Source: Stegostoma tigrinum
Taxonomy: Eukaryota
Length of the DNA: 64,000 bases
NCBI RefSeq assembly: GCF_030684315.1
Contig: NC_081387.1
Span: 20,146,678 to 20,210,677 of the forward strand
Reading direction: 5' to 3'
The notes beneath the pieces were generated by a model, which did not search any database, was not told the DNA's origin, and saw nothing but the letters and a program-made list of their open reading frames with translations. The translations under genes and the position numbers were made by a program. Below are positions 3,755 through 60,276 of the stretch, piece by piece. The first letter of the stretch is position 1, and each line of letters opens with the position of its first letter.

Positions 3755-3883
3755 TCTGAAGAAGTGCTCAAACCCGAAACGTCAGCTTTTCTGCTCCTCT
3801 GATGCTAGTTGCCCTGCTGCGTCCATCTAGCTCTACACTTTGTTATCTCAGATTCTCCTGCAGCGGCAGTTCCTACTATCTCT
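3755..3883. mobile_element. Penelope-derived terminal fragment
   Basis: ctgaagaag...cccgaaacgtcagc...gttcctactatc, same family. Confidence 0.75.
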
Positions 3884-4399
3884 GTTGAATAGTGGGCGCT
3901 CCTTGGATAACACGAACTTTCTACTGGACGGTAAAAGCGATTTGCTGCAGCGGTTATCCACAGCGCGACATCACCCAAGAACGTAGCCATCGCGTTATAC
4001 GAGAAATACGTGTTGCAACAGAACCAGCAGAGTATCATACGTCCTTTGATTGAGCTGGTTTGAGTTTTGTGGCGTGGGTAAAGAAAAAAAAATGAAGCTG
4101 CGCTGGGTTCAGATTTACTGGGTCAGGACGTTGTGTCTTGGCGAGAAGTGGAAGTTTGAAGATTGAAAATTTGGTCGCGATAAAACATGCTCTACAGGAA
4201 TTTGCAAAAACGTCTTTCACAGCACCACATGAAGCTACACCTCTCTACCTCCAGTCGGTAGAAACTCTGTACCGCCATCTCCAAACTTATCGCCAAGCTT
4301 ATACTTGAAAAGTGAAATTCTAGGTGTCATAAAATCAAAAAAGAGCGCAAGCGCTCTAAATGCAGGCCCGTAGTTTAGAAACACAATGGAAAAATAAGC

Positions 4400-5660: not shown

Positions 5661-6175
5661 AGGTTAGATTACTCGATTCTACACTACGCAAGGTGAATTT
5701 CGGTCTATTCTGCTTGGGCACCACCACAACATACAAAATCATGAAAAAGAGCCCTTATTATTGAAGTCTACTGATTCATTAATGCACCTTATCACTCATA
5801 CTTCTTCACCAAATTGTTTTTGCTTTGGGTGTTATGGGGTGGTGACTCAATTTCCACTGGAAATTATCAACCCTAAGTCTAAGAAAACGAAGCCATTCAG
5901 CCCATTATTTTGGTGACGCAGGCCATTATGTGAAGACAGCACCTCTCCTCAAATACCTTGTTATTGGGGCTCGTTAACATTGTTTTGTGCTGTTTTTGGG
6001 GCTGGTTTCATTTTGAAAAGAAAACATTTGCAAGCAGATTTAGGATACTGTAAAAAAAAACTTGGGAACAGAGAAATTCCATCCCTGGAAATGACCTTTG
6101 ATGAATTACTGGAAGTTCGTTGTTCGATCTACTATTGGCGCGTAACAAAGCAGCTTAATATGCAAATTCTCTTAC

Positions 6176-6204
6176 TTGTGTTGTTCGCTGTAGATTGGGA
6201 ACTG
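6176..6204 (-). CDS. Gene A cytoplasmic micro-exon (AVPNLQRTTQ)
   Basis: 29 nt, ccatttccacag| ... CAA|gtaaga, phase 1-0. Same length, phase and flanks as gene B exon 4. Confidence 0.7.
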
Positions 6205-6577
6205 CTGTGGAAATGGAGTTTTGAGATAAGTCAGTGTTGGAGTCTAACTATGCAGCACTTACACACATTGTTGCACACAAGAAAATGCACACTAACACAT
6301 GTACACAGAAACACACCTGTCGAAAATGAAACAGGAGATCTCAGAAGAACATGATGGGAAGACGATGAACTTGTGGAAGGTGAGCAGACTTTAAGAATTA
6401 AAGGAGAGTTGGATGATCTCTCAGTTGCGAGAGGAATTTGACGTTATCAATTGGGATTTGTTTAGAAGGGTAGATTAGATGCCTTCATACATGAGACTTT
6501 GTTGTTGGTAGAATGGCAGGTAGGATTATTGTTGCGTTAACTTCGAATTTTTCACACATCTGAGCGTTAGATCTCCA

Positions 6578-6870
6578 GCACGGGAGCTTGTTGGTTAGCA
6601 CTACTACCACACAAGGCCATGGGCCTGGGTTCGATTCCACCCTCGGATAACTCTTTCTACGGAGTTTACATGTTCTCCCTGTGTCTACATGGGTTTCTTA
6701 TGGGTGCTGTGGCTTCCTCTCACAGTTGAAAGATGTGCAGGTTAGATGGATCGGCAATGGTGATTGCAGGGATATGGTAGGAAGTGGGCCTGGGTGGGAT
6801 GTTTTTCGGAGGGTTGGTGTGGACTCGATTGGATCAATGTCCTGATTCCACGCTGTAGGGATTCTATTGT
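6578..6870 (+). mobile_element. HE1-type tRNA SINE
   Basis: ggttagcact...gggttcgattcc head, V-SINE core ggagtttacatgttctccctgtg, tail ctgtagggattcta. Confidence 0.8.
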
Positions 6871-7052
6871 ACATGAATATACTATCGTACATGCACACCG
6901 ACACAAGGGTTACAGCAAAAAACGCGAGTACAAATGTACTTGAACAAAAGCATCTACAAGTGTGTTAATTCTTATTTTGTTTTAACTAAGCAGTTATAAC
7001 AATTAACGTAGAGAATATTTACATCAAGTAGAGAATATTTACATTCACATAC

Positions 7053-7081
7053 CATTCGTTGTATTGGTTGCACCGAGATCT
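7053..7081 (-). CDS. Gene A cytoplasmic micro-exon (DLGATNTTN)
   Basis: 29 nt, ctgctttttatag| ... ATG|gtatgt, phase 2-1. Frame-compatible with both neighbours. Confidence 0.65.
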
Positions 7082-7177
7082 CTATAAAAAGCAGAGTGGT
7101 TGATATTTGAATTTAATATTATGCACATTATGTTCTGAATAATCGTCAATGCTGTAATATAATTAATGGTCCCGTAC

Positions 7178-7196
7178 CTTTTCAGCTTCAAGATTA
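7178..7196 (-). CDS. Gene A cytoplasmic micro-exon (VILKLKR)
   Basis: 19 nt, attttattttccag| ... AAG|gtacgg, phase 1-2. Supplies basic juxtamembrane residues. Confidence 0.7.
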
Positions 7197-7878
7197 CTGG
7201 AAAATAAAATGGATATTTATTAATTTAGTTGTATTAAATTTATTAGTTTAAATATTTTAAACTCATTACTTCATGGGCGCGCTTCTTATTAGCATACGGC
7301 AAAATGATCATGTACATATGTTCTGGTGACATTTAAAACCTTAGCACAACGAGTATTTGGGCATTTCTTCCTTACATCATGAGCGGAGGATCTTCAGTTA
7401 CGCAGATTGATCACGGCGGTTGCAATAGTACACCTCAGAAAAGTGAAAATTGAGAAGGAATCTAAAAGAATGTTTAAAAAAGAGGCAGCTGGACGGAGTG
7501 GATAGGGAAAATTTTCGTAATGGTGGAAGGAGAGAGTGAAACCACATATTTAGGATAATTGGTTATAAAGCAATGGTGGCATGGGGAGAAACCGTATCAT
7601 ACAGCTGGATCATGGTGATGTTTTGAAGTGCACTGCCTGATTCAATTGAGGCATTCAAGTGGGCATTGGGCGATTATTTAGATAGAAATAAAGTGGTGCA
7701 ATATGAGGGAAAGGCAGGAGATTGTCACTAGGAAATAGAACTGGTGCATGCATGATTGGCCAAATGGTCTCACTCTATATTGTAGCAATTCTGTGATAGA
7801 GAGCAGAGTAGTTATCCAGTACTAAAGCAAAAGGATATTTGTTCAACAGGTCCCGGCGCATTTGACAGAATTGCAAAC

Positions 7879-7998
7879 CTTTATTTTGTTGGATCAGTCC
7901 ACATATAAGAACCATTACAATTATAACCAGTAAGGTCACAGCACCTCCCAGTCCTAGCAACGAATTATTATTTCCGCGATTTTTCTCCGATCCCTTGC
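7879..7998 (-). CDS. Gene A exon 3, stalk + transmembrane (RKGSEKNRGNNNSLLGLGGAVTLLVIIVMVLICGLIQQNK)
   Basis: 120-nt phase 1-1 exon, acceptor cctgtttcag|, donor G|gtttgc. ~22-aa hydrophobic helix with no charged residue. Confidence 0.88.
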
Positions 7999-8118
7999 CT
8001 GAAACAGGATTTAAAATAAACATGTCAAAATCCTATTTCGAAGATATTGAGGAGAAACTTTATTTAATGTTTTGATAAATAGCGTGATTGTAAAACTATA
8101 TCAATTGCATTTCTCTGG

Positions 8119-8277
8119 TATAACAAGGTGTGATGCTGGATGAACACAGCAGGCCAAGCGGCATCTCAGGAGCAGGAAAGCTGACCTTACGGGCCTCGTC
8201 AGCTTTCCTGCTCCTAAGATGCTGCTTGGCCAGCTTATCTCTGATTCTCCAGCATCTGCAGTTCCTATTATCTCTGA
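8119..8277. mobile_element. Penelope-derived hairpin with target-site duplication
   Basis: Inverted arms; flanked by atatcaattgcatttYtct on both sides. Confidence 0.8.
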
Positions 8278-8596
8278 TATCAATTGCATTTTTCTAGTGG
8301 CTTTCACAGTTTCAGGGTATTGTAAAGTGCTTTGCAACCAACAAACTAGTTTTGAAGTACAGCCACTTCTGGAATCCAGTAAACATGACAGCCAAACTGA
8401 GCTTAGGAAGACCACACAAACAGCAGTGTGATATTGATGGGTGAATTAGGCTTCTTCGTGATTTTGCTGACGTTGTATGATGCTGGAGACACATTGCGCA
8501 AACACAGAGGCCACATCCCTTGTAATTCCTCGAAATAAGGTCACAGAAACATTTGCAGTCACTTGAGAGGAGAGGCAGGGATTTAAATATCATGGA

Positions 8597-8730
8597 TTTG
8601 AGCAACGCTGAGTAACGTTTGTTGCCTATCCCTAATTGGATAGCTAAGCATCAATCACATCGCTATGGATCTGGAGTGAAATTTAAGCCAGACCAGAGAA
8701 TATCGCAAACTTCTTCCTTTAAAGGCCCCC
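8597..8730 (-). mobile_element. Deu/SacSINE1-type SINE fragment
   Basis: Family-B LINE tail (ttgcctatccctaattg) joined to the SINE body. Confidence 0.55.
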
Positions 8731-8756
8731 GCACCTTTAGATGGCATTAGATTTAT

Positions 8757-9059
8757 CATAGAATCCCTACAGTGTGGAAGTAGGCCATTTGGCTCATCAA
8801 GTTAACATTGCCTGCTCCTAAATGCATTCTGCCCAGACCCAAATCCTTAACCTATCCCTGTAATCCTGCATTTCCTATAGCCAAGCCATCCAGCCTACAC
8901 AACGCTGGACACTGCAGGGCAATTTAGCATGGCCAAGCCATCTAATTGCACATCTTTGGACTGCGAGGGAAACCCAGATCACCTGGAGAAAACCCACGCA
9001 GAACTGTGGAGCACGTGTTATGAGGCTGCACTAGTAACTACTGAGCCACTGTGCCGCCG
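8757..9059 (-). mobile_element. HE1-type tRNA SINE
   Basis: Reverse-complement match to 50943-51250. Confidence 0.8.
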
Positions 9060-9293
9060 TTTAGTGATGTTTTTGCTGAGAAACTGATAATTGTCAATGA
9101 GTTATGTGGTCTACAATAGAATAGTTTTGTATTTCAGACCTTTTTTCTTCTAAAAAATATCTTGCGATTCTTTCTTGATGATTGAAAGATTACAAGTTGT
9201 AACAAGGTATCGTCTTTTCAACATCACTCAATTATGCGTCCCTAAAGGACAACATTTTAGAAATAGAAATGACTATTCTAGCTTGCCACTTAC

Positions 9294-9635
9294 GCTTCAC
9301 TTCCAGCGTGGTGCCGTTTCCATCTCTTTCCTCCTTTCCCATCACACTTACACGACAGTAATAGGTATCTGAGTCTTTTTCAATCAGGTTGGAGATATTA
9401 ATGAAAATTCTGTTGTGAGTAAATGAATCACCGTCCGATTTCCGCAGTCGAGCTGCATAAAAAGGACTATCATCCAATTTGTACCCATCTGGTTTGCCCC
9501 GCGTCCAGGAAACTGCACCAACGAGAAACGGGGTTTCTTGAAAGTCCAACGCACAGTTCAGCGTGACCGATTCGCCCTCTGTTACAGTTATAAAGGGAGG
9601 GAACTGGAAGACAGTGACATCCATCTTCGTATCCA
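9294..9635 (-). CDS. NCR3: Gene A exon 2, single-exon VJ-type Ig V domain, NKp30/NCR3-like
   Basis: 342-nt phase 1-1 exon (ttttctttctaccag| ... C|gtaagt). Canonical V-set residues TLNC, VGAVSW, DSDTYYC and J-like GNGTTLEVK. The pattern VxQxPPxIxxxEG...GxVxWxR...RL...FxH...CRVxVxG...GNGTxLxV matches NKp30 as I recall it. Family call is strong; orthology is not established. Confidence 0.9.
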
Positions 9636-10033
9636 CTGGTAGAAAGAAAAGATTATTGGTTATAGTTTTATTCATATATTTGTATCTATGTATAGATTAA
9701 ACAAACGGGAGGCGCTAGCAATTTAAAATGCATTACACGCCTGCCGAAAGTGCATGGGAACTTCACTATATCAGATAGGGTCTGAACCACGAAGCGAGCT
9801 GAAAGTTTTATTGTGCTACTCCTTTTCACTGCTTTGTGATCTGAACCAAGAGTTCAAACCCTAAAATGCAATTGCTGAAGCAATGTCAAGATCCCCTATC
9901 GCTCAACATTTTACTTTTTCATTATTAATTGCTTTGTCTTGATGTGGGGCAACATTGAGCCTTCGTTGCTGGGGCTTCCTTACACTTAAATAAATTGCAG
10001 CAACTTTGCAAAGCGGGGCAGAAGTGAAGAGAG

Positions 10034-10201
10034 ATAGTAGGAACTGCAGATGCTGGAGAATCTGAGATAACAAGGTGTAGAGCTGGATGAACACAGCAGG
10101 CCAAGCAGCAACAGAGGAGCAGGGAAGCTTGAAAATTTTCTGAAGAAGGGTCCCGACCCCAAACGTCAAGCTTTCCTGCTCCTCTGTTGCTGCTTGGTCA
10201 A
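10034..10201. mobile_element. Penelope-derived hairpin with target-site duplication
   Basis: Inverted arms; aagtgaagagag on both flanks. Confidence 0.8.
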
Positions 10202-10544
10202 AAGTGAAGAGAGTTCTGTGCCGACCTGGCGACAGGGAAACGCCGATTAATTCACTTGTTTGATTCTACTCACATCGACAATGTGAAATCGCGTGTAATC
10301 TGGAATCTAGACACAAATTTAGCCCGTAGAAGTTTGTTGAACGTATGTGCGATAGGATGCTGTTACACCCTCACTTCGTCGACTTTATTTTGAATAAGCT
10401 CTTCATCTACTTAAGCCGAGCAGGTATTGCGTCTCTGGTTCCTGGCGAGACCATCATGTTATATAGTGGTTATTATTATACAGAGTACTGATACAGCACT
10501 TTCCAGGGCTCATAACCCGAGCGCGACTGCTCCCTTACTATGTA

Positions 10545-10665
10545 AAAACTGAAAGAACTGCACATGCTGTAAATCAGGAACTATGTCTGACGAAGGGTCA
10601 CCGGACACGAAACGCTAACTGTGAATTTTCTTCAAAGATGCAGCCAGACCTGTTGAGCTTTTGTC
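10545..10665. mobile_element. Penelope-derived element, second subfamily
   Basis: ctgacgaagggtcaccggacacgaaacg motif. Related copies at ~19670, 31960, 32590, 38985, 52495 and 61780. Confidence 0.6.
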
Positions 10666-11988
10666 CTGCTCTTACTCCCTTACTGTTAACTGTTGCAATG
10701 TCGAAGTTAGCTCTGAGCTTCAAGGAAATCTACACCAAGTGATTAAAACAAAAACAAAAATATCAGAAGATGCGGTGTGATTTGCAAAGAGGAGTCAAGA
10801 GGGCATTGTGATTTAGAGAGGAGAACAGATCACGGGATCAAGATAAGCAGCAGAAGCGCGAGGGCCAGATGAAAGGAAATGGATATTCAGAAGTGGGGAA
10901 TAAAAATTAATACGTTCCATTGAAGTAGGATCAAGGAAAGGGAAGCGGACGAGAAACAGAAAGATGGAAGAATAGGAGGTTTGTATAAGCAAGGGTGAAA
11001 ATAAGGGAGAAAACACAGTCGGGTGGCGACCACAAGTAATGATGGTGGTATTGGGTTATATCGACAGTGTTGGCGGCGTGTGAGGGGTTATAGGGTGGTG
11101 AACCTTTGGGGTTGATGCTCACAAAGTGTAAGAAGAATAGCTCCGTCCCAGATTGGGGAGGCTGTCGTTTGAATACAGATCTGTCAAATTGCCGGAAAAA
11201 ATGTTGACTTTGCCTGAACATCTGGTCGACGATGTAAGGTCAGGAGGCTGACACTATGGGGAGGGTCACGGACGATCGCACCGAGCTTTGGTTGAATCCG
11301 CAGTTGCTCGGATACTTAAGCAAACCCCAAGAAGCAGCACCCAGGTCTGGACGAATAGTCCTGTAAACAATACAAATGTCAGCGACGCGTAGATCCCGTG
11401 AACAGAATAAAACCAAACGGCTACACCATAGTAAATGCACGTGTTTATGATTCTTTTTGGAAAAAAGAAAATAACTATAAATTTGTATAGCGTCCCTTCA
11501 CGTACGCAGTGCTTCAGAATTGAACCTTGCTTCTCAGTTCTTGTCTTAACACGGGCATCAAATCCAGTTAGCAGCGCCTCACTCGTCGGCTGCAATTCAG
11601 TTAAGAGGTTCGCCCCGAATTTCTCAAACCCTCCGCCGCAATTCCGATGCGAGATGGCTTGTGAAACTTAGCTGCCGATCTCCCGCCAAAATTCCGAGCA
11701 GGAGAGAGAGAAATGCTGGCAGGAACTGCACCTCTGTGCGTCCCAACTTTCGGATATAATGGCGGGAGCGGCACTATGTTTCATACCGCAGGCGGCTGCG
11801 AGTTGCAGGCGCTTGGCGTCCACAAATTCGCTTCCGTTCGCATTTCGGTGGATGTTTCAGCCAGTCCACTTACCGGCGGTAAGATGGCCATGGCTTCTTA
11901 GAACACGCGTAGTTTCTGCAACATTTGCGACGCAAAATAATCTTTTTTTTGTCCTCGATTTGGAACGGCAAAGATCAGTGGAACTCAC

Positions 11989-12046
11989 CCGCACTTGTTG
12001 CAAAGATAATCGACAGCATGAGGGTCAGCAGTTGTCGCAAAACCAT
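11989..12046 (-). CDS. Gene A exon 1, signal peptide MVLRQLLTLMLSIIFATSA
   Basis: ATG at 12046, 19 mostly hydrophobic codons + G, then strong donor G|gtgagt. Phase 1 matches the V exon (G|TG = Val). Lies in a CpG-rich stretch. Confidence 0.85.
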
Positions 12047-13478: not shown

Positions 13479-15712
13479 TACATAGAACATAGAAAAGTAC
13501 AGCACAGTACAGACCCTTCGGCCCACGATTTTGTGCCGTGGAATAATCCTAATCCAAAAATAAAATAACCTAACCTACACTCCCCTCAATTCACTGCTGT
13601 CCATGTGCATGTCCAACAGTCGCTTAAATGTCACTAAGGACTCCGCTTCCACGACTACCACTGGTAAACTATTCCATGCGCTCACACTTCTCTGGGTGAA
13701 GAACCTCCCTCTGACGTCTCCTCTATACCTTCCTCCTAACACCTTAAAGCTATGACCCCTCATGGCAGTCAATCCTGCCCTGGGGAAAAGTCTCTGGCTA
13801 TCGACTCTATCCATGCCTCTCATTACCTTGTACACCTCGATCAGGTCACCTCTCTTCCTTCTTCTCTCCAGAGAGAAAAGTCCGAGCTCAGTCAATCTCA
13901 CCTCGTAAGACAAGCCCTCCAGTCCAGGCAGCATCCTGGTAAACCTCCTTTGCACCCTCTCCAAAGCCTCCACATCTTTCCTATAATAGGGCAATCAGAA
14001 CTGGGTGCAATATTCCAAGTGTGGTCTCACCAGGGTTTTGTAGAGCTGCAGCATAACCTCGAGGCTCTTAAACTCAAACCCCCTGTTAATGAAAGCCAAA
14101 ACACCATATGCTTTCTTAACAACCTTATCCACCTGGGTGGCAACTTTGAGGGAGCTATGCACCTGAACACCAAAATCCTGCTGTTCCTCCACACTGCCGA
14201 GAATCCTGCCTTTAATCCTATATTCAGCATTTATGTTCGACCTTACAAAATGCATCACTTCGCATTTATCCAGGTTGAACTCCATCTGCCATTTCTCAGC
14301 CCAGCTCTGCATTCTGTCAATGTCTCACTGAAGCCTGCAATAGCCCTCGATACTATCAACGGCACCTCCAACCTGTGTCATCAGCAAACATACTAACCCA
14401 CCCCACAACCTCCTCATCCAAGTCATTTATAAAAACTACAAAGAGCAGAGGCCCAAGAACAGAACCCTGTGGGACACCACTCAGCACTGACCTCCAGGCA
14501 GAATACTTACCATCTACAACCACTCTCTGCCTCCTGTCAGCCAAGCAATTCTGAATCCAGACAGCCAAATCACCCTGTATCCCATACCTCCTGACTTTAT
14601 GAATGAGCCACTTGTGGGGAACCTTATCAAATGCCTTACTGAAGTCCATGTACATCACATCCACTGCTCAACCCTCGTCAACCTGTCTCGTGACTTCCTC
14701 AAAGAACTCAATAAGATTTGTAAGGCATGACCTGCCCCTCACAAAGCCATGCTGACTCCCTTTAATCACGCTATGCTTTTCCAAATAGTCATGAATCCGA
14801 TCCCTCAGAATTCTTTCCAAAACCTTGCCGACCACAGACGTAAGACTGACTGGTCTGTAATTTCCAGGGATTTCCCTATTCCCTTTCTTGAAAAGAGGAA
14901 CAACATTTGCCCCCTCCAATCTTCTGGTATGACTCCCATGGAGATTGAGGAAGCAAAGATCTTTGCCAGCGGCTTAGCAACCTCCTTTCTCATTTCCCGG
15001 AGCAACCTAGGATAAATCTGGTCTGGCCCTGGGGACTTATCAATCTTAATGTTTGCCAAAATTTCCAGCACATAAACTTCCTCAGTCTCGATCTGTTCAA
15101 GCCTGTTTTCCTGCTCCTCAAAGTTCTCATTCGCAACAAGGTCCCTTTCCTTAGTGAAAACCGAAGCAAAAAACTCATTTAGGGCTTCCCCTATTTGCTC
15201 AGACTCCACACACAAGTTCCCTACGTTATCCCTGATTGGCCCTACCTTCTCCCTGATCATTCTCTTATTCCTCACGTATGAGTAAAATGCCTTCGGGTTC
15301 TCCCTAATCCTTCCTGCCAAGCCTTTTTCGTGCCCCCTCCTGGCCCTCCTCAGTCCACTTTTGAGCTCCTTCCGAGGAAGCCTGTAATCCTCTAAAGCTG
15401 TGCTAGACCCTTGCTTCCTCCACCTTACGTATGCTGCCTTTTTCTTTTTGACAAGAAGCACCTCTGTACCCGTCATCCAAGGCTCCTTAATCTTACCCCT
15501 TCTTACCTGTCTCAGAGGAACAAATTTATACATCACTCACAACAACTGCTCCTTAAACAGCCTCCACATGTCTGCTGTGCCCTTTCTGTGGAACAATTGC
15601 TCCCAATCTGTACTTCCCAACTCCTGTCTGATAGTGTCATAGTTTCCTTTACACCAGTTAAAGATCTTCCCTGGTAACTGCTCCTTTCCCTTTCCTTGGC
15701 TATGGTAAATGT
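13479..15712 (-). mobile_element. Relatively young 5'-truncated CR1 LINE (ORF2 RT, frameshifted)
   Basis: Consecutive ORF pieces [56 protein letters not shown]; (ttctatg)n 3' tail at 13479. Confidence 0.95.
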
Positions 15713-40777: not shown

Positions 40778-41020
40778 ATGATGATTATAATTTGGCAATT
40801 TATGATGATGCAGCTCATTCTCTTTCCACTAATCATTGGTGAGTTAAATTATATTGTTCGTCATTATGCACTGCTCTTCTTATAGCACATGGTACCTTGT
40901 GATGCTCTGTTTTATTTAGACAATTTGTTCGTCTGTAATGCCCTCGTCAACTATGATCACTGTTATATGATTACATAATTCTCAGTTTGCAATTTACTTG
41001 AATAAGTAGAATACAATTCA
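40778..41020 (+). pseudogene. Probable degenerate paralog of gene B (leader exon 40778-40838 plus decayed Cys exon ~40920-41004)
   Basis: Leader MMIIIWQFMMMQLILFPLII G|gtgagttaaat aligns with the gene B leader. The downstream phase-1 segment DNLFVCNALVNYDHCYMIT* has a stop and no GT donor. Confidence 0.5.
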
Positions 41021-48961: not shown

Positions 48962-49051
48962 AATTGTTCCGTATGCGCCTACTTATTAAGACTGTTCGCC
49001 TGGAGACTCCACGTTTACACGCTGCATGTCTTTACCATGAACGACTGGAGG

Positions 49052-49109
49052 ATGTGGATAATCCAGCGAATTGCCTTTACGCAGCTGATTCCCTTTGCAC
49101 TCTGCAATG
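49052..49109 (+). CDS. Gene B exon 1, signal peptide MWIIQRIAFTQLIPFALCN (alternative in-frame ATG at 49037)
   Basis: 58 nt, phase 1, donor G|gtgagt. Same size and donor as the gene A leader; homologous to the leader copy at 40778. Confidence 0.72.
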
Positions 49110-49499
49110 GTGAGTTAAATGTATTCTGTAGAGCTTGTAATATCCATCTAACTAATAGTTCCTGACCCGTCTTTTTAATAATTTGAGAATTATTGCAACC
49201 GTCTATGTTAACTTTGGGACATTTGTTAAATTAAGCAAAACTTCAAATTTTTACCGTTCCATGGGAGTCGCTTGCCTCAGCACATCCTGTAAACAGTTAC
49301 AAATCTCCGAGGAAGTGACCAATTCCAAGACAAAATTGTTCTACTGTTTAGTTTGACAACTAAATCCTCCGCTTTGAGCGGTGGTTGTAATGTCTTTTTT
49401 CATGGAGCAGCTCGCTGGTTCAAAAGATGGGAAAAAAGCTCCAACAGTCAATTAAATTGTGAAAAAATAGCAGACACAATGAAAAAGGCTAATAACTGC

Positions 49500-50800
49500 A
49501 TTACCACAATTCAACGAATGCTCTTTCGACCATCTGTGGGTGCGGAAGTTTGAGTGATGAAGAAAATAAATTGTCAGGAATTCGAGAAAATTTAAAACAT
49601 GAAAAGAGAAGTGGAGCACTTAAACAGGACAGTACCATGTTGGTGGAGTGTATAGTAATGTGGGAGTTGAGGTTTATTGCAGAGAACTGTGAGGTGATAC
49701 ACTTCAGTACAAGGAACATGGGGTGACATAAATTGAAATATTCCAAAGTGTGTTGGAGCAGAGAACCAGGATGCATATAAGTCATTAAAATTGGAAGGAC
49801 ATTGAGACAGAGAGCTGTTAACCAAGCATGCTGCATGTTAGGTTTCATAGAGTACAAATGTATGGACTTTATGATGAACATATTCAGAACAATGGTTGGA
49901 GATCAGTTGCGGTACAATGCTGGGCGTCACATATTGAAGAAATGTGAATGTATAAGAAAAGCGTGCAGAAGAGGTCTAGGCAAATGGGATTGGAAAGTTC
50001 ATTTTTTTGGAAAGACTTTCGGTGTTAATCTTATTTTCCTTGGAAGCAAAGAGTTTAAGAGCAGATTTCATAGAAGTTTCAAAATCATGTAAGAGATTGA
50101 AAGGCGACCTTGTAGAAGTTTATAAAATAATGAAGGGTATAGATAGGTTAATGGTCGTTGTTCCCCCCCAACCACCCCGCCCCCGAAAGGGTGATATAAA
50201 AGTCAGGGGACACATTTTTAAGGTGAGAGAGAGGTTTAGAAAAGACATGAGGGCAGTTTTTTGCAGGGAGGGCGGTTTACATGCGGAATGGATTTACGGA
50301 GGCAGTGGTGTATGTGGGTACAATGACAGTGTTTAAAAAGCATTTAGATGTGTACATGAATAGGAAACGTTTGAAAGAATACGGGCTAGCATCAAGCAGG
50401 TGGGATTTGTTTAGTTTGGGATTCTATTCGGCATGGACCAGTTGGACCAAAAAGTCTGTTTCCGTTCCATTTGACTCAATGACTCTGTGAGGGGTGTGGA
50501 AAAAAATGATAGCGAGGAATTGTTCCTGTGTGGAAATGGACTGAGACTGAGAGGGCACATGTTTAAAGTATTTGATGATGCATGCAAATGCGAGGAGAGA
50601 ACTATTGTTCACACACCAAGTAGTTGAGGCTGATTCAGTTGAGCATTCAAGACGGCCCCGGATGTTTGTTCAAATAGAAAATTGTGCACAGAAAGAGACT
50701 GAATTTAAGTTCAAATGCTCAAAGAACCAGTGCAGATATGAATAGGTGAATGATACCTTTTGGCACGCTAACAATTCTGAGATTCCGCGAAGGCTTGGCA
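49500..50800 (+). mobile_element. Nested CR1 fragments
   Basis: LKGDLVEVYKIMKGIDR, FKKHLDVYMNRK. Confidence 0.75.
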
Positions 50801-50942
50801 AGTTGGTGGTACACACATTGCAGTTTGAACTAATGCTATATGATCTTATTTAAACATATGCAGCTCTAATGGATGCTGAGAATATGTTTTCCTTTCTAGA
50901 ACCAGCGCTCGCCTTAAAAAGAAACATTAGGGATCAAATTCA

Positions 50943-51250
50943 GGGCGGCACGGTGGCTCAGTGGTTAGCACTGCAGCCTCACAGCGCCAGGGACCCAGGT
51001 TCGATTCCAGCCTCGGGCGACTCTCTGTGTGGAGTTTGCACGTTCTCCCCGGGTCTGCGTGGGTTTCCTCCGGGTGCTCCGGTTTCCTCCCACAGTCCAA
51101 AGGTGTGCATGCTAGGCGGATTGGCCAGTGGTGTTCAGAGGTGTGTGGGTTATAGGAGGATGGTTCTGGGTGGGATGCTTCAAGGGCAGTGTGGACTTGT
51201 TGGGACAAAGGCCCTACTTCCACACTGTAGGGAATCTAATGTAATCTAAA
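50943..51250 (+). mobile_element. HE1-type tRNA SINE, well preserved
   Basis: GGGCGGCACGGTGGCTCAGTGGTTAGC (A box), GGTTCGATTCC (B box), V-SINE core, CR1-like tail. Confidence 0.92.
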
Positions 51251-51645
51251 TGTTCAAAATGGCACTGAGGAGAACGTTATTCTTTCAAAAAGTTGTTAAT
51301 CTGTGGGTTTTTCTGACGCAGCGACTAGCGGCGACGTTGAATCATTTCCAGCCTGAGTTAGTCTCTGGATGAAATGAGAGTAAAATGGAATCGTGGGAAT
51401 TAGGATAATTTTGAGTGGTTTTGAGGTACTGAGTGCATAATTGGATCCGCCATGATTTTATGAAATGTTACAGTTGATGCAGGAAGCGTTAAATTTTTCT
51501 GGTCCTAATGCACGTCTTCAAATGGAATAAAATGCAAGGATATCCACGCCAGGCACCTTTAAAATGGAAAAAAGATGATCCATTTTTGTTTTAGTAAATC
51601 ATACATGTCGTGTTATATTACAGTTCTCTCGTTTTATAACTGCAG

Positions 51646-51753
51646 TAACAATCCAGGCAGAGTTCGGAAAAGGGAAAATGTGCTGTAAAATATTAATAGA
51701 CAATGAATGCGAAAAGATAGAAAGTGGGCGTATCAACAATAAAGATGTCGAAT
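51646..51753 (+). CDS. Gene B exon 2, short Cys-rich ectodomain (VTIQAEFGKGKMCCKILIDNECEKIESGRINNKDVE)
   Basis: 108-nt open phase 1-1 exon, ctctcgttttataactgcag| ... T|gtaagt. The junction T|GT makes a fourth Cys. I found no Ig exon between leader and TM. Confidence 0.68.
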
Positions 51754-52082
51754 GTAAGTAGCAATTCAAGAAACCAATTTTTAGTATGCATGATTAAATT
51801 TGAAGCTTTTTTCCCCCATGATAAGGAAATGCAAGAAAATTCTGTTCTGACTCTAGAAGTTAGTCAACTGTCATGAAACGCGAGGCTAACATTGTCCTGA
51901 AGACACGGAAGATCTGTTGAAGTCCAACTTGTTTATTAGCAACTGACAGAAAAGAAGGGAGTTGAGTAATCGCAGAAGTGTTGGTGATGACGAGCACAAG
52001 AGTAGAAACAGCTCTTGATGTTGCCACATCACAGAGATAACTTTCCATTTAGTTGCTCCCAAGCACCTCTCCTAGTTTAAGG

Positions 52083-52325
52083 CATGGAGCTGGATGAACA
52101 CAGTAGGCCAAGTAGCATCTTAGGAGCAGGAAAGCTGACGTTTCTGGCCTAGACCCTTCATCACCTGACGTTTCGGTCCTAGACGCTGCATCATTTTCTG
52201 ATGAAGAGTCTAGGCCCAAAACGCCAACTTTCCTGATCCTAAGATGCTGCTTGGCCTTTTGTGTTCATCTAGCTCCACACCTTGTTAACGCAGACTCTCC
52301 AGCATCTGCAGTTCCTACTATCTCT
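52083..52325. mobile_element. Penelope-derived hairpin
   Basis: Inverted arms; flanks tctcctagttt. Confidence 0.8.
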
Positions 52326-53049
52326 CCTAGTTTGACGTAGTAATACACCTGCCCACCGCGTTTTGACCTTTGGCATTCTGCTTTCTGATACTGATTCTTG
52401 CTAAGGAATTCCTGCCGCAGACGCTGATTCCCTTTCGCACGTCACAGTTAAGAAGCACTGAGGTTGAAATCACTGCCCGATCCTCCAGGAAGTCGGGAAT
52501 TGCTGGCGGAACGCAGTTTGTCTGGTTGCACCTGTGGAAAGAGAACAGAATTAACTTTTCGAGTACGCTGAATCTGCTTTGCAGAGTTTCACCAGCGATT
52601 TCTGTTTCCCCTTCCGATCTCCAGAATCCGCAGTGCTTCGTTTTATTTTTCTACCAAAAACGTGTGCACTGCCCGGGAATCTTGCATGATACCACTACAC
52701 CAACAGCGCATACGCGCATGGTCCTGAATTCACTTAACTTCAAGCACTGTTTTTCAGCGCGCTTTTGGATTTGGCGTGTATTTGCCTTCGCTTTTCTGCA
52801 TGCTATCTTAAACTTCAGTACCAGATCCACAACGCCCCTTACTTATTTTGCCCATTTCTCTTGTTACTGGTTCTGGATGGCGCCTGGAGGGAAGCATCGA
52901 GATTTCACTGATGCAATGCATTTCTGGCAGGAAAACAAATGTGTCTCACTGATCTGTGAACTTTTGTTTTAAACAGAAGCTGCGTGATCTCATCGATCAG
53001 TTGTTTTCAACATGAATTTCAACTTCTGCGGTCATACTATTAATTGCAG

Positions 53050-53160
53050 GTGTCATAGTGGAAAAAAAGACTGTCATCACACCAATTTTGCTGGGCGCTC
53101 TGGCATTGATAGGTCTGCTGATTATATTCTTGACAGTTCGAGGGCTGCGGGCAACGTCAG
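53050..53160 (+). CDS. Gene B exon 3, transmembrane (CVIVEKKTVITPILLGALALIGLLIIFLTVRGLRATS)
   Basis: 111 nt, phase 1-1, ttaattgcag| ... G|gtttgt. ~22-aa uncharged helix followed by RxxR. Confidence 0.82.
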
Positions 53161-53392
53161 GTTTGTATTTTCGTTGCACTCAAGGAAATCTAGTCGAACA
53201 GTAAGAGGTAGTAAGGTCGGGAGTCTTCTTTAGAAATGCAGGAGGAGGAAGGGAGCTCCGAAATGAATAGAGAGGAGGAGTGAAGCTGGGGAAGTAGGTG
53301 GGATGATTATAGGCTAGTGCAGGTAGGCAGTGGTGAGGATTGATCAGTGAGGTGTGGGTAGCGGACAGGTGGGATAAAAGAGAGCAGAGCTG

Positions 53393-53588
53393 GGTGGTAC
53401 GGTGGCTCAGTGGTTAGTAGGGCTACCTCAAAGTCACCAATAGTTCGGGGTTCGATTCCAGCCTCGAGCTGGGTTAGACGTGGGGAAATACAGCAGTCGG
53501 GGAATAGGTCTGCGTGAGATGCCCTTTGGAGGGGCAGTGTGGGCTAGTTGGGCCGAATGGCCTGTTTCCACGCTGTAGGGATTCTCTG
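53393..53588 (+). mobile_element. HE1-type SINE, internally deleted
   Basis: A/B boxes and tail present. Confidence 0.7.
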
Positions 53589-53784
53589 AAAGGGTTGTTG
53601 TGCCTTATTCCATTTACGCACTCAGTACACGGACGATTATTTGAGTTCCCGTCAATGATGCTGACCATTGTAGAATCATCAATGAATTTATCCACTTCTG
53701 GTGAGACGGTTGAAGATGGTTGCGCCTTGGACACTAAACCTGAGGAATATCTGCTGATATAGTTCGGGCTCGGATAACAAGGAA

Positions 53785-56700
53785 AATGAAGTTGCTTAGG
53801 CCCCTCATGGTTTTACAAACCTCAATTAGGTCACCCTGCTGTTTCCGACCCTCCAGTGAAAATATCCCCAGCCTGGTCAGACCATCCAGCCCCGGCACCC
53901 TCTCAAGTTTAACAGCATTCTTCGTCTCGAAGGGCGTCCAGAATTGTATGCATTACAATTCCAAACGTGGCTTCACCAATTCCCTGAACAGCTTGCAACA
54001 TGACATCCCAACTCTTAAACACGATTTTATGACCAAGCTTGCCATAAGCTACCTTCACCAGCCTGTTTAGCTGCAACTCCACTTTCAAGGACTTATGCCC
54101 GCTCTCCTTGTTTGGCAACACTCCTCAGCGACCCCCCCGCCCACCCCGTTTAATTGTATAAGTCCCACCCTGATTTGTCTTACCAACTGCAACACCTTAC
54201 GTTTATCCAAATTAAACTCCAATTGCCACTCGTTGGTCCGTTTGATCAACATCCTATGGCAATCTGTGATAATCTTCTTCACTGTCCACTGCTCCACCTA
54301 TTTCGGTGTCATCTGCAAATTTACTGACCATACCTCATGTATTTACATTTAAATTATTTACCTAAATGAGAAAAAGCAGCGGACCTAGCAATGATCCTTG
54401 TGGCATACCACTGGTCACAGGCCTCCAGTCCAAAAATAAACGCTCCACATCCCCAACCCGTCTCCTATCGTCAAGCCGATTTCGTACCCAATTGCTGGAT
54501 TCCCCTGGATTCTAAGTGACCTAACCTTACTAACCATACTACCATGCGGAACCTTGTCAAAGATTTTGTTGAAGCCCAAATAAACAATGCCTGTTTTTCT
54601 GCTTTAACCAACCTTCTTTGTCACTTCTTCAAAAGACTTCAGTCAAGTTTGTGTGACAGGATTTCCCGCGGACTAAACCATGCTGACTATCCCTAACCAG
54701 TCCTTGCCTTTCTAACTGCATGTAAATCATATCCATCAGAATCCCTTCCAACAACTTACCCGCCACTCAACGTCAGGCTCACCGAGCTATAGTTTCTCGA
54801 CTTTTCCTCACCGCATTTTTAAAATAATGGCATTACATTAACCATCCTCCATTCTTGTCACACCTTACGAGTGGCTATCGATGATACAAACATCCCAGCC
54901 AGAGGCTCAACAGTCTCTTCCCTAGCTTCCCACAAAGTACCAGGATACTTTCGACCAGGACCTTGGGATTTATCCACCTTTATGTGTTTTAAGACCTCCA
55001 GCACGTCCTCGTCAGAGATACGAATTCGTTTCAAGATATCAAAGCTTATTTCCCTAAAATTTCCTGGTTTCCAAGTCCTTCTCCAAGCAAACATTGACAT
55101 GAAATAGTCATAGTATTCACCCATCGTCTGTGGTTCCACAAGCAGACGGCTACGCTGATATTTAGGGGACCATATGCTGTCCCAGTTACTCTTTTGCACC
55201 TAATATAACATCTCTTTTGATTCTCATTAAATGTATTTGCCAAAGCTGTCACTTATATCCTTTTGCCTTCCTGTTTCCCTCTCAGAAATACTTCTCCCGC
55301 CCTTACACTTTTCTCCGGATTCGCTCAATCCTAGCTGTCTATATCTGATGTATACTTCCTTCTTTTTCTTGATCAGAGCTTCAATTTCTCCAGTCATCCA
55401 GTATTCCCTGCATCTACCAGTCTCGTCCTTCACGCTAACAGGAATATACTGTCTCTGAACTCATGTTATATCATTCTTAAATGGCTTCCACTTCCCAACC
55501 ATCCCTTTACCTGCGAATGGCTTTCCCCAATCAACTTTTGAAACTTCCTGTTTAAAACCGACAATATTGGCCTCACTTCAATTTAGAACTTATAACTTTT
55601 GCGACACTTCTGTCCTTTTGCAAGACTACTTCGAAACTAATAGAATTATAATCACTTGTTCACAAGTGCTCCTTCACTGGCACCTCCGCCTCTTGTCCTG
55701 CCTTGCCAGCAGAAAACCTACCTACCAACCTCATCCCGCCCCCTTGACCTGTTAGTCCTCTCCGGGCTGACCCATCCCCTCCCTAACTCTCCACCGACAC
55801 TCACCTCTACTGACTCCATCCCCGCCTCTTTAACTTGTCTGTCTCCTCTCCACCTATCTTCTCCTCTATCCATCTTCGATCCGCCTCCCCCTCTCTCTCT
55901 GTTTATTTCAGAACCCTCACCCCCTCCCCCTTTACTGCTGAAGGGTCTAGGCCTGAAATGTCAGCTTTTGTGCTCCTAAGATGCGAAAGTTTTCTTGTAC
56001 ATGTTTAACCTCCCTTAACGGTACGGCAGTCCCATACTTTCTTTGGAAATTAAAATCCTTCACCATTACAACCAAATTATTCTTACAAATATCTGAGATC
56101 TCCTGACATATTTGTCCTTTTTTTGCGTACAGGACACACTTGGGCAGTTTTCCACACTGTTGGGGAAATGACAATGCAGTGGCTGCACTGGAGCAGCTCA
56201 GTGAGGGGGGGGGGGGGGGGTGGTGACAAGTTCTGGAGTCCAACTCTTCAGTTAAGGAATATTGCAGGGCCCTAGCCTTTGCAGTATACAATGCCTCCAA
56301 CAGTTTCTTGACACTGAATTGGCTGAAAACTTGCATCTGTGATGCTGGGATCACTGATACTTGCAGAAATGGATCTTCCGCTCAGCACTTCTATCTTAAG
56401 GTTGATGCAAATGCTTCAGCCTTATCTTTTGCACTAATGTACTGATCCCTTCTACCATTGAAGATGGAAATATTTGTGCAGCCGTGTCCTTCTCCAGTAT
56501 GTTATTCAATTGCCCATGACCTTCACGCTGGATATGGCAAGACTGCTCATCTTAGATCTGATCAATTGGTTGTGAGATCACTTAACCCTGTTTATCAGTT
56601 GCTGCTTGAGCTGTTTAGCCCACAAGTATTCCTGTTTGCGAACTTCACTAAGTGGGCACCCCATTTGTCTGGATGTCTAATACTACTCCTGAAATTTCCA

Positions 56701-56945
56701 TTAAACCAGGGCTGGACCTCTTGCTTGATGGTAATGGTTAAATATGGGATATGCCAGGCCAGATTGTGTGAGATTACAATTCTGATCCTGTTGATGGCTC
56801 TAAGCGCTTCCTGGATGCCCAGTCCTGAGCTACTAGATCTGTTTAAAGCCTGTTGCATTGGGCATGGTGATAGTGCCACACAATACGGTGGAGCGTGCCC
56901 TCAAAGTGAAGAGTGCCACTTTTACTGATTCTGTCATGGGCAGAT
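53785..56945 (-). mobile_element. Decayed CR1 (53785-55680), Penelope fragment (55700-55985) and family-B LINE fragment (56110-56945) in gene B intron 3
   Basis: HIKVDKSQGP, EWQLEFNLDK, ITIKQEVQPWFN remnants. Confidence 0.8.
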
Positions 56946-56959
56946 TCAGCCATTTCCAA

Positions 56960-57290
56960 CCATTCAATGGTTGGGAAGTCAAGAAAGCAGGGGTCACAGT
57001 CTAGGCATACTGGGGTAAGCAATTTAGGATTGAGATGAGAAGTCTCTTCACCCAGAGAGTGGCGAACCTGTGGAATTCTGTACCACAGAAAGCGACTGAG
57101 TCAAAAAATGCAATGTTTTCAAACAGCAGATCTTTTTTTTTTTAATATCTAAAAGGAGAGAATGTATGGGGAGAAAGAATAAACAGAGTAATTAGTTACA
57201 TGATGAGCCATGATCATACCGAATGGCAGTCCAAACCAGAAGGGTTGAATGGCCGACTGCTTTTCCAACTTTCTGTACTTCTATGTTTAA
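56960..57290 (+). mobile_element. CR1 3' fragment
   Basis: ttcacccagagagtggcgaacctgtggaattc ... ttctatgt tail. Confidence 0.7.
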
Positions 57291-57703
57291 TGAGTCTCCC
57301 TCATGCATGACTTCCAAGTGATAAAACGTTAGTTGCACATTAGTCAAAATAGCACATCTAGCTTTTCTGTTTGATGGGAAATTAAGGAAAAAGTCTTGCC
57401 CAGTGTCACAGAGAAGCAGACCACTAGTTAGTGCTGAGCCTTGGCAGTTTTCTGTGACATCACGATGGCATTCGGATTTAAAGAATCATAGTTTATTTAT
57501 CTACATTATCTGCTTTTCATTTATGTTTGGTAGAATTTAATAGGAACAGAAATCATTTCAATGTTTGTGGTGTTGGGTATGGTATCAGAGAGGAGGTTTC
57601 ATCATTTGTTTTTATTGTCATTTCTGTACCTAAATATACATTGCTGTTATATGGCGTTTTTCCCCAAATGAAATATAATTCTGTTGTGTTCATGTTACCA
57701 CAG

Positions 57704-57732
57704 GTTCCAGGGGTGTAAAACCAACGGCACAA
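57704..57732 (+). CDS. Gene B exon 4 (GSRGVKPTAQ)
   Basis: 29 nt, phase 1-0, gttaccacag| ... CAA|gtaaga. Bridges the phases of exons 3 and 5 exactly. Confidence 0.78.
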
Positions 57733-58499
57733 GTAAGAACTATCAAATGTTTTACACATCAAATTGTTGTGGTGCAATTTTATGTTTCCTGGGGGGAACC
57801 CAAAACAATTTATTTATTGATTTCTTGGTGCGTCCCTGGTGGAGGGTCAAGGAAACATAACTTTGTTTGTATTCATGATATCCATGACATTGAATACCCT
57901 ATGGGCTTTCACAACTATTCCTTACATCTGTTACCTTCCATGAAAATGGATTTAACTCAAAGGCATTTCCGATAATTATGTGGAATTTCTATCTTGACAA
58001 ACACAAGCACATTGTTTAATAATAGTTTTCTGTGGTTAGCATTTCACTACTATTTCATTTTGAATTACATATCATACCAGGATAGGGGCCCAAAGTTTCT
58101 GAGGTTGTGTTGCAATGAATTGAACAAAGATTGGTTTAAAAATCTTGCTGTGTTCAGAAATGTCCAATAATGTTTGGTGCCGTGAAGGGATAGCAAAGTG
58201 GCATTGAAACTGGACGTGATGATTTCTTATTCTCTGAAAATGTAATATGAAATTGGAGCACAATGTTCAGTTTTAATGACATGATAAAACTATAAAAAGA
58301 TCTCATCGAATGATGAACATGAAGCAGTTGTTGACTGTTGCAAGCAAGAGAAAACTCATGCAGTATGGAAAACATAAGTTTACAAAACTGCAGCAATGTC
58401 TTGACCCTTAATGGCTATCTCAAATGGCCTAGGAAGCTATTCAGTGATATCCAACTTACAAAGGGCAATTAGGATGGAGGTTTAATGCTCATTTTGCAA

Positions 58500-59755
58500 C
58501 GAAAATCAAGCTTCACAAGTTTGTTAGAATTCTATAAAGATGTAACCAGTAGAGTTGACAAGGGGAAGCCAGTCATTGTGGTAAATTTGGACTTTCAGAA
58601 AGCATCTGACAAAGCCCCATGTAAGAGATTTTATGTAACATTAAAACACATGGGATTGGGGTAATGTTTTGAGTTTAATAGAAAACTGGTTGATTGGCTG
58701 AGAAGAAACAAAGAATAGAAATTAATGGGCCCATTTCAAATTGGCAAACAGTAACTAAAGGAGTGCAATGGAAATCTGCACTGGGACTCCAGCTATTCAC
58801 AACAAAAAATAATTTGTATGAGGGAACAAAATGCAACATTTAAAAATTGGCAGATTATACCAAGTTTGGTGGGAGGTTGCGCTGTGATGAGGATGCAGAG
58901 ATCCTTCAGCATGATTTGGACAGGTTGGGTGATTGGGCAAATCATTGGCACAAGCAGTACAACAGTGAGGTTATTCACTTTAAAAGCAATAAAAAAAAAC
59001 AAGAAGGCAGATTACAATCTGGCTGGCTGTAAATTGGGAAAGAGGAGTGTGAAGTGGGACCTGGCTGCCCTTGTACACCAGTCACTGAAGGTAGGCACGC
59101 AGATGCCGCAGGCAGTAAAGAAGGCAGATGGTATGTTGGCCTTCATTATAAGAGGTTTCAAATACAGGAGCATTGTTGCAGTTTCACAGAACCTTGGTGA
59201 GGCAGCACGTAAAACATTGTGTGCAGCTTTTGTCTCATTTTCTGAGGTAAGATGCTGTTGCTGACGAGGGAGTGCAACAGAAGTTTACTGGGCTGATTCT
59301 GGGGATGGCAGGACTGATATATGAGGAAAGATTGACTAGATTAGGATTGCTTTCACTGGAGTTCAGACGAGTAAGGGGAGATCTCATGGAGACGTATAAA
59401 ACTCTCTCAGCACTAGATGTATTGTAGATGCAAGGTGGATGCTCTCGGCAATTGGTGTGTCCAGAACCAGGGGTAACAGTCTGAGGTTTCGGAGTAGACC
59501 ACTTAGGGGCGGAGGGAAGGAGAAATGTCTCCACGCAAAGATGGTGAGCCAGTAGCTGATGCCAAAACATTGAATGTATTCAAGGGGCAGCTCGATACAA
59601 GACTTGCGGGAAATGGGATCACAGATTATGCGGAGAAAGCAGGATTAGGCTATTGAGTTTGAAGATCATCTATGATCGTGATGAATAGCGAAGCAGGCTA
59701 GAAGGGTCGAATGGCCTCCTCCTGCTCCTATCTTCCATCTTTCTGTGTTTCTATA
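58500..59755 (+). mobile_element. CR1 LINE 3' half
   Basis: ggactttcagaaagcatctgacaaag, LQHDLDRLGDWA, AVKKADGMLAFI, 3' tail. Confidence 0.85.
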
Positions 59756-59931
59756 AGATATTCTGAACTAATTTAAACAAACAAGTCTCTCTTGAAACCG
59801 AGGGCTTGTAAAGTCTGCGTTAAAACAGGAAAATGTTTCAATTTTAGTCCAAAGTCAATGATGGTGGAAAGTACTAAAGGAACTATCAGTTTTTAACGTA
59901 ATTGATAATTTTAACATTTTAATCCTTCCAG

Positions 59932-60120
59932 GAACGTGTGGCTAAGAAGCCTTCACTGCCTTATGCCCGGTTGAACGTACAACAAACAAGAAGCTCGGGT
60001 AGCAGAGACAGGAATTTAGATGGCGTAGAATACGCCTCAATAACGTCAGAGTGTGTGGACGGGCGCTCCAGATCTCGGCGACCCGAGTTTGAAGATGCCA
60101 TTCCCGGTGGCCAAATGTGA
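59932..60120 (+). CDS. Gene B terminal exon with two ITIM-type motifs (LPYARL, VEYASI)
   Basis: Acceptor ttttaatccttccag|, phase 0, reads ERVAKKPSLPYARLNV...DGVEYASITSE...GGQM*. Both tyrosines fit (I/V/L/S)xYxx(L/V/I). Confidence 0.85.
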   Translation, partial: ERVAKKPSLPYARLNVQQTRSSGSRDRNLDGVEYASITSECVDGRSRSRRPEFEDAIPGGQM

Positions 60121-60270: not shown

Positions 60271-60276
60271 AATAAA
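60271..60276 (+). terminator. Putative polyadenylation signal of gene B
   Basis: First AATAAA, ~150 nt after the stop codon, with T-rich sequence downstream. Confidence 0.5.

Follow-up and report, generated by a model that had tools for sequence, protein, structure and literature searches.

Introduction

Shark NCR3 (NKp30) receptors have a single, intact, VJ-type immunoglobulin variable (IgV, or V) domain. Activating receptors carry a charged transmembrane (TM) residue, a lysine, for an adaptor with an immunoreceptor tyrosine-based activation motif, and the activating NCR3 type likewise has a charged TM residue. Eight nurse shark NCR3 sequences exist (MT914154-61), with accessions given in PMC12227049. 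In white shark, a table (PMC10751288, supplement part 6) lists PRRC2A, AIF1, and five NCR3 genes, the last in strand order +,+,-,-,+. Mammalian LST1 lies next to NCR3 in major histocompatibility complex (MHC) class III and has a very short, cysteine-bearing ectodomain, one TM segment, and a pair of immunoreceptor tyrosine-based inhibitory motifs (ITIMs) that bind SHP-1/2 (PMC8111073); its exons 2–5 come after non-coding first exons (PMC4015914). Tandem motifs of this kind bind both SH2 domains of SHP-2 or SHP-1, the sites where they bind are conserved among jawed vertebrates, and an alanine at pY+1 favoured SHP-1 in PD-1 (PMC12151841). Here, we describe gene A, a five-exon gene at 49052..60120 on the + strand of a 64,000-nucleotide stretch of the Stegostoma tigrinum genome (contig NC_081387.1, positions 20,146,678 to 20,210,677). 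This whole stretch is called the window, and positions beyond its end are given in window-extended numbering. Gene A is probably an inhibitory derivative of the NCR3 family in which the V domain has collapsed to a 36-residue stub with four cysteines, leaving an adaptor-like protein predicted to recruit SHP-1/SHP-2.

Exon structure and motifs of gene A

Gene A begins with a leader (signal-peptide) exon at 49052..49109 (58 nt, phase 1), followed by exon 2 at 51646..51753 (108 nt), exon 3 at 53050..53160 (111 nt), which encodes an uncharged TM segment, a micro-exon at 57704..57732 (29 nt, passing from phase 1 to phase 0), and exon 5 at 59932..60120 (189 nt), which encodes the cytoplasmic tail. 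The chain proposed in the initial annotation, with GT-AG ends, phases of 1, 1, 1, and 0, and a 164-aa frame, was reproduced exactly. An in-frame ATG five codons earlier, at 49037, is an optional start, and AATAAA at 60271..60276 (+), 150 nt past the stop, is a candidate polyadenylation signal. Among the 2159 GT and 2621 AG sites between 40 and 81 kb, all eight splice sites fall within the top 5% when scored with an approximate matrix that we built for this analysis. Four sequencing runs of unspecified kind, all from one study, were found to contain this stretch, with no RNA run among those listed. The protein has cysteines at positions 18, 32, 33, 41, 56, and 143, of which Cys32, Cys33, Cys41, and the split-codon Cys56 belong to exon 2. 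Signal cleavage may come after residue 24 rather than residue 19. Exon 2 is indeed symmetrical, as first proposed, and skipping it would keep the frame and give a product of 128 aa, although nothing shows that skipping occurs.

The tail contains LPYARL and VEYASI, with tyrosines at 113 and 136, which agrees with the earlier description of two ITIMs 23 residues apart. Both motifs satisfy the ITIM consensus (S/I/V/L)xYxx(I/V/L), and the protein whose tail carries them crosses the membrane once. The tandem pattern is common by chance, with 464 kb read in six frames giving 21 matches, and the case for a real gene therefore rests on conservation. The tyrosines of PD-1 are 25 residues apart (Y223/Y248; PMC12151841). 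The distal motif, VEYASI, resembles (T/V)EYATI of PD-1, a relationship that was compared at the motif only. Unlike the PD-1-like inhibitory receptors of the immunoglobulin (Ig) superfamily, which have an intact IgV domain, gene A has none, and its locus is MHC-linked.

An orphan second copy of the leader exon lies upstream at 40781..40838 (+), with an open frame and a strong donor. It could be an alternative first exon or the remnant of a further duplicate, and it could serve gene A or its paralogue. Most introns are filled by short interspersed repeats and by reverse-transcriptase fragments that we take to be LINE-like, and such sequence also occurs at 13578-15536 (-).

Paralogue B and selection

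When exon 5, exon 2, and exon 3 were searched separately against the genome, the result every time was the gene A locus and one other, paralogue B, ~22 kb downstream. Paralogue B has exons 2–5 in the same phases, at 73630-73743, 79045-79155, 79914-79942, and 80476-80676 in window-extended numbering (114, 111, 29, and 201 nt; L003:9630-9743 and L004:5045-6676 in tile coordinates). Per-exon amino-acid identity between A and B is 44–56%, with 18/35 residues identical in exon 2. The CC-x7-C-x14-C ectodomain reported earlier is present in gene A, but it is not a fixed pattern, as B has C-x2-C-x6-C-x14-C. Over 142 codons, the nonsynonymous and synonymous divergences (dN and dS) are 0.38 and 0.98, a ratio of 0.39 (bootstrap 0.24-0.59), and dN/dS reached at least 1 in none of 2000 bootstrap resamples. 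For exon 2 alone, the corresponding proportions are pN 0.25 and pS 0.67. Gene A and paralogue B are under purifying selection, exon 2 included.

This constraint, in exon 2 itself as well as over the whole, argues against the proposal that gene A is a decaying NCR3 duplicate with a broken V exon, either a pseudogene or barely expressed. A synonymous divergence of about 1.0 has also left all exons of A and exons 2–5 of B open and in phase, and the splice sites and polyadenylation signal of gene A are intact. The proposal draws on the state of paralogue B, which keeps only the distal tyrosine, the first being replaced by histidine (a single ITIM), and for which an intact cognate leader was not found between 60.2 and 73.6 kb. 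A decayed leader region lies near L003:8360-8500, where homology to intron 1 marks the former place of the leader, and the splice sites of B are weaker than those of gene A. Also consistent with decay are the orphan leader upstream, the lack of any database protein from a closer shark (only P0006, the sawshark protein described below, was found), and the white-shark table, which lists no gene in the equivalent 183 kb, where A, B, and the intact relative ig1 sit in this genome (PMC10751288). Taken together, we consider decay very unlikely.

Comparison of exon 2 with V exons

The initial annotation described the ectodomain as a non-Ig domain that could be assigned to no known domain type. This is probably wrong, given the position in an NCR3 cluster and the matches in splice register to ig1, an intact NKp30-like gene at 5961..12046 (-). 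Lying ~40 kb away, ig1 is the closest full-length relative of gene A in this genome. It has a leader at 12046-11989 (58 nt), a V exon at 9635-9294 (342 nt), a TM exon at 7998-7879 (120 nt), a micro-exon at 6204-6176 (29 nt), and a candidate last exon from 6047. Human NCR3 accounts for the top four of 217 PDB matches to the V exon (9294-9635, -), with E about 6e-9. The gene is inverted relative to its neighbours, its TM segment is uncharged, and its tail appears to be free of ITIMs.

We compared the exons of A and B with those of ig1 using alignments fixed at splice sites, with background donors or acceptors as the reference. For the two leader copies, the donor-anchored comparison gave 40/85 (gene A) and 37/85, each equalled by none of 992 background donors. 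Just upstream of exon 2, 51595..51645 (+) holds an in-phase acceptor and A-strand-like sequence. The 51595 acceptor and the next 64 nt scored 38 against the start of the ig1 V exon, a score reached by none of 2995 background acceptors. At the other end, exon 2 of B matches the G strand and donor of ig1 without gaps at 24/39 (0/1644 background). Combined head-plus-tail scores against ig1 were 67.5 for A and 55.5 for B, above a background of 10 ± 14 (0/400 each); against the other five V exons they were 27.5 or less. The TM exon of gene A also stood out against ig1 (0/912 background), as did the micro-exon, which is 29 nt long in A, B, and ig1 (0/1904, by a narrow margin).

Judging by these alignments, exon 2 is likely what remains of a V exon of about 342 nt after an internal deletion, predating the A/B duplication, that left 108 nt, and the 51595 acceptor is likely the ancestral start of that V exon. 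The acceptor is lost in paralogue B and is possibly an alternative acceptor for gene A, in which its use would add 17 residues and a fifth cysteine.

A counterpart in sawshark

Database queries were made with single exons only, never with the spliced 164-aa protein, which limits their sensitivity. On that scale, word-based searches scored none of 61 candidates for exon 5 and none of 13 for exon 2. A profile search identified P0006, an uncharacterised protein of Pristiophorus japonicus (UniRef100_UPI00398E9DB9), with an E value of 5.1e-10. The second of its two matches, P0005, is a 2912-aa repetitive plant model and was dropped as an artefact.

P0006 consists of a repeat-like N-terminus, a V domain without the first strand, a TM segment, a 9-residue micro-exon peptide, and a tail that keeps both tyrosines 23 residues apart, and it is then fused to the next NCR3 gene. 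It shares with gene A an orthologous TM segment, micro-exon, and two-tyrosine tail, and a place just upstream of the same NCR3 gene; exon 3 of gene A matches both P0006 and paralogue B. Unlike gene A, P0006 carries a near-complete V domain. This first V domain groups with ig1 (support 0.955, on a long branch, with 39/92 residues identical). The proximal tyrosine motif has Gln at -2 in P0006, and VEYASI does not vary among A, B, and P0006.

A profile of exon 2 from A and B matches the P0006 V domain with a z score of 3.8, a value reached by 0/150 shuffles (AEFGKGKMCCKIL vs EAFGNERVCSNIL). With 8 further V domains, the same profile reached a z score of at most 1.1 and gave no match; 9 of the 10 targets were valid, ig5 being excluded.

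The specificity of this match bears on a further alternative, that exon shuffling supplied the ectodomain as a cysteine module with no Ig ancestry. Neither exon 2 nor exon 5 falls in a Pfam, NCBIfam, or PDB-sequence family, and exon 2 gave no usable match in the Atlas. AlphaFold, run on two-sequence alignments, gave predicted local distance difference test values of 62.6 for the short form, with beta strands, and 45.4 for the long form. Fold searches with the short-form model returned nothing usable (best E 7.7, best Z 2.3) and are uninformative on the fold. While this absence of relatives and the lack of significance in unanchored comparisons with V exons (see Discussion) suit a shuffled module, exon 2 at each of its ends, and three further exons, agree with ig1 in splice register, exon 2 matches the sawshark V domain specifically, and the cysteine spacing differs between A and B. 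Exon shuffling seems a very improbable origin.

The NCR3 cluster

Gene A lies in the NCR3 (NKp30) cluster, next to AIF1, on the chromosome that carries the MHC. All 36 of the class I (MHC_I) matches in the genome are on the contig of gene A, as are 13 of 29 TNF matches, ~4.7 Mb away, and there is a match to AIF-1 59 kb ahead of the window. Using an NKp30-V profile, we found six intact V exons and one broken V exon in 464 kb. Five of these V exons have the strand order +,+,-,-,+, the same as that of the white-shark NCR3 genes beside AIF1 (PMC10751288). In the sawfish table of the same paper (supplement part 17), two genes listed as uncharacterised lie between NCR3 and AIF1. Of 48 database candidates for the V exon downstream of B, 4 proved to be relatives; two of the 4 bear the name NCR3-like, and the clusters of these relatives include nurse shark NCR3. 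No Ig exon had been overlooked in the initial annotation: between 40.8 and 80.5 kb, none of 76 plus-strand open reading frames of at least 70 aa had an Ig match, and the NKp30-V profile found no V exon within gene A or B.

A TM exon with a lysine in its membrane segment lies downstream of a V exon (L011 ~300-415; 144299-144415 in window-extended numbering, -) and likely belongs to an activating NCR3 member. The TM segments of A, B, and P0006 are uncharged. The broken NKp30-type V exon, at L009 ~3780-4380 (window-extended 127.8-128.4 kb), is probably a pseudogene. Elsewhere in the genome, P0006 also matched V-type exon clusters at G000:C44:11.3-11.9 Mb and C19:9.87-10.22 Mb.

The resemblance of gene A to shark NCR3 comprises the cluster and, in the anchored comparisons with ig1, the leader, the TM segment, the micro-exon, and the ends of the V exon. 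Because A and B are without the single intact V domain, we file them as derivatives and not as full members. An ITIM-bearing subtype may already be among the described nurse shark NCR3 sequences. Our literature search found no description of gene A; it covered the shark NCR3-subtype literature incompletely and does not establish absence from print.

The neighbourhood of NCR3 and AIF1 is also that of mammalian LST1, and gene A could be the shark orthologue of LST1 or a sister of its ancestor. The short cysteine-bearing ectodomain, the single TM segment, and the two ITIMs (one in B) are shared, and when the TM segment and tail of the sawshark protein were searched blind against Atlas features, LST1 came at rank 4, with a score of 0.79. 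A score below 0.9 is a lead only, and C1orf162 was as high (0.80). The Pfam LST1 family (PF05083) had no match at the locus, on the exons, or on P0006. Gene A differs from LST1 in having a leader exon and four ectodomain cysteines, and A, B, and P0006 all lack the cysteine just inside the membrane that is the palmitoylation feature of LST1 (PMC8111073). LST1 is reported (PMC1654159) to be absent from marsupials and a eutherian gain, and the V deletion appears younger than the split from sawshark, which points to convergence with LST1. Orthology would be compatible with an NCR3 origin of gene A if LST1 were itself a V-less NCR3 derivative, and we rate it as quite unlikely. On these comparisons, we file gene A neither as LST1 nor as a full NCR3 member.

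Discussion

Several observations weigh against the derivation of gene A from an NCR3 gene by loss of the V domain. Unanchored comparisons did not support homology of exon 2 to V exons. The NKp30-V profile score was equalled by 203 (A) and 365 (B) of ~950 shuffles, the local DNA score was reached by 117/2310 windows, and neither nhmmer (E 2.4) nor hhalign (E 0.25) was significant. The anchored tests were designed only after the resemblance had been seen, and two of them were weak, namely the 3' end of exon 2 of gene A (17/39, with 45/1644 background donors doing as well, weak when taken alone) and the TM exon of B (41/912). P0006 is a single chimeric model, and the junction of its V and TM segments may be an annotation artefact. 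The candidate last exon of ig1 has no ITIM and so does not account for the gene A tail, and the missing leader and first tyrosine of B count here as well. In our judgement, the convergence of four exons, and of another species as well, on one partner carries more weight than the unanchored negatives, the after-the-fact design of the anchored tests, and the dependence on the single P0006 model, and derivation from NCR3 is the reading we favour. The first proposal of an inhibitory receptor or adaptor survives insofar as gene A encodes a type I membrane protein, is under selection, carries two motifs of the ITIM consensus, and lacks an intact Ig exon; the non-Ig origin and the unassignable domain are probably wrong.

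Under derivation from NCR3, an ig1-type ancestor with a leader, V, TM, and micro-exon would have carried an ITIM exon. The acceptor of exon 2 would then have shifted past the A strand, and the B to C'' strands, with part of the E-F stretch, would have been lost by in-frame deletion. Extra cysteines may have been retained or gained, before the gene duplicated into A and B. Such a stub would be unable to form a V domain or to engage a ligand of the B7-H6 type in the customary manner. It may be stabilised by disulphides and could possibly form a dimer. Recruitment of SHP-1/2 by the tail is predicted from its motifs: Src-family phosphorylation of Y113 and Y136 would allow docking of tandem SH2 phosphatases, which in turn would set a higher activation threshold for activating NCR3 paralogues that are co-expressed.

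A broader proposal is that LST1 is not a eutherian invention but an end point of the same V-losing NCR3 lineage, with a pair of activating and inhibitory NCR3 receptors ancestral to jawed vertebrates. We regard this as unlikely. If it were true, sharks would keep an ancient inhibitory NCR3 paralogue midway through the loss of its Ig domain.

With gene A, the shark NKp30 cluster gains an inhibitory branch that seems to have gone unannotated, which suggests that activating and inhibitory receptors are paired there. The probable shrinkage of an Ig domain to a selected, 36-residue cysteine stub can be traced through the fuller sawshark form and the intact relative that lies 40 kb off. It would offer a concrete route from a receptor to an ectodomain-poor ITIM adaptor, at the position held in mammals by LST1.

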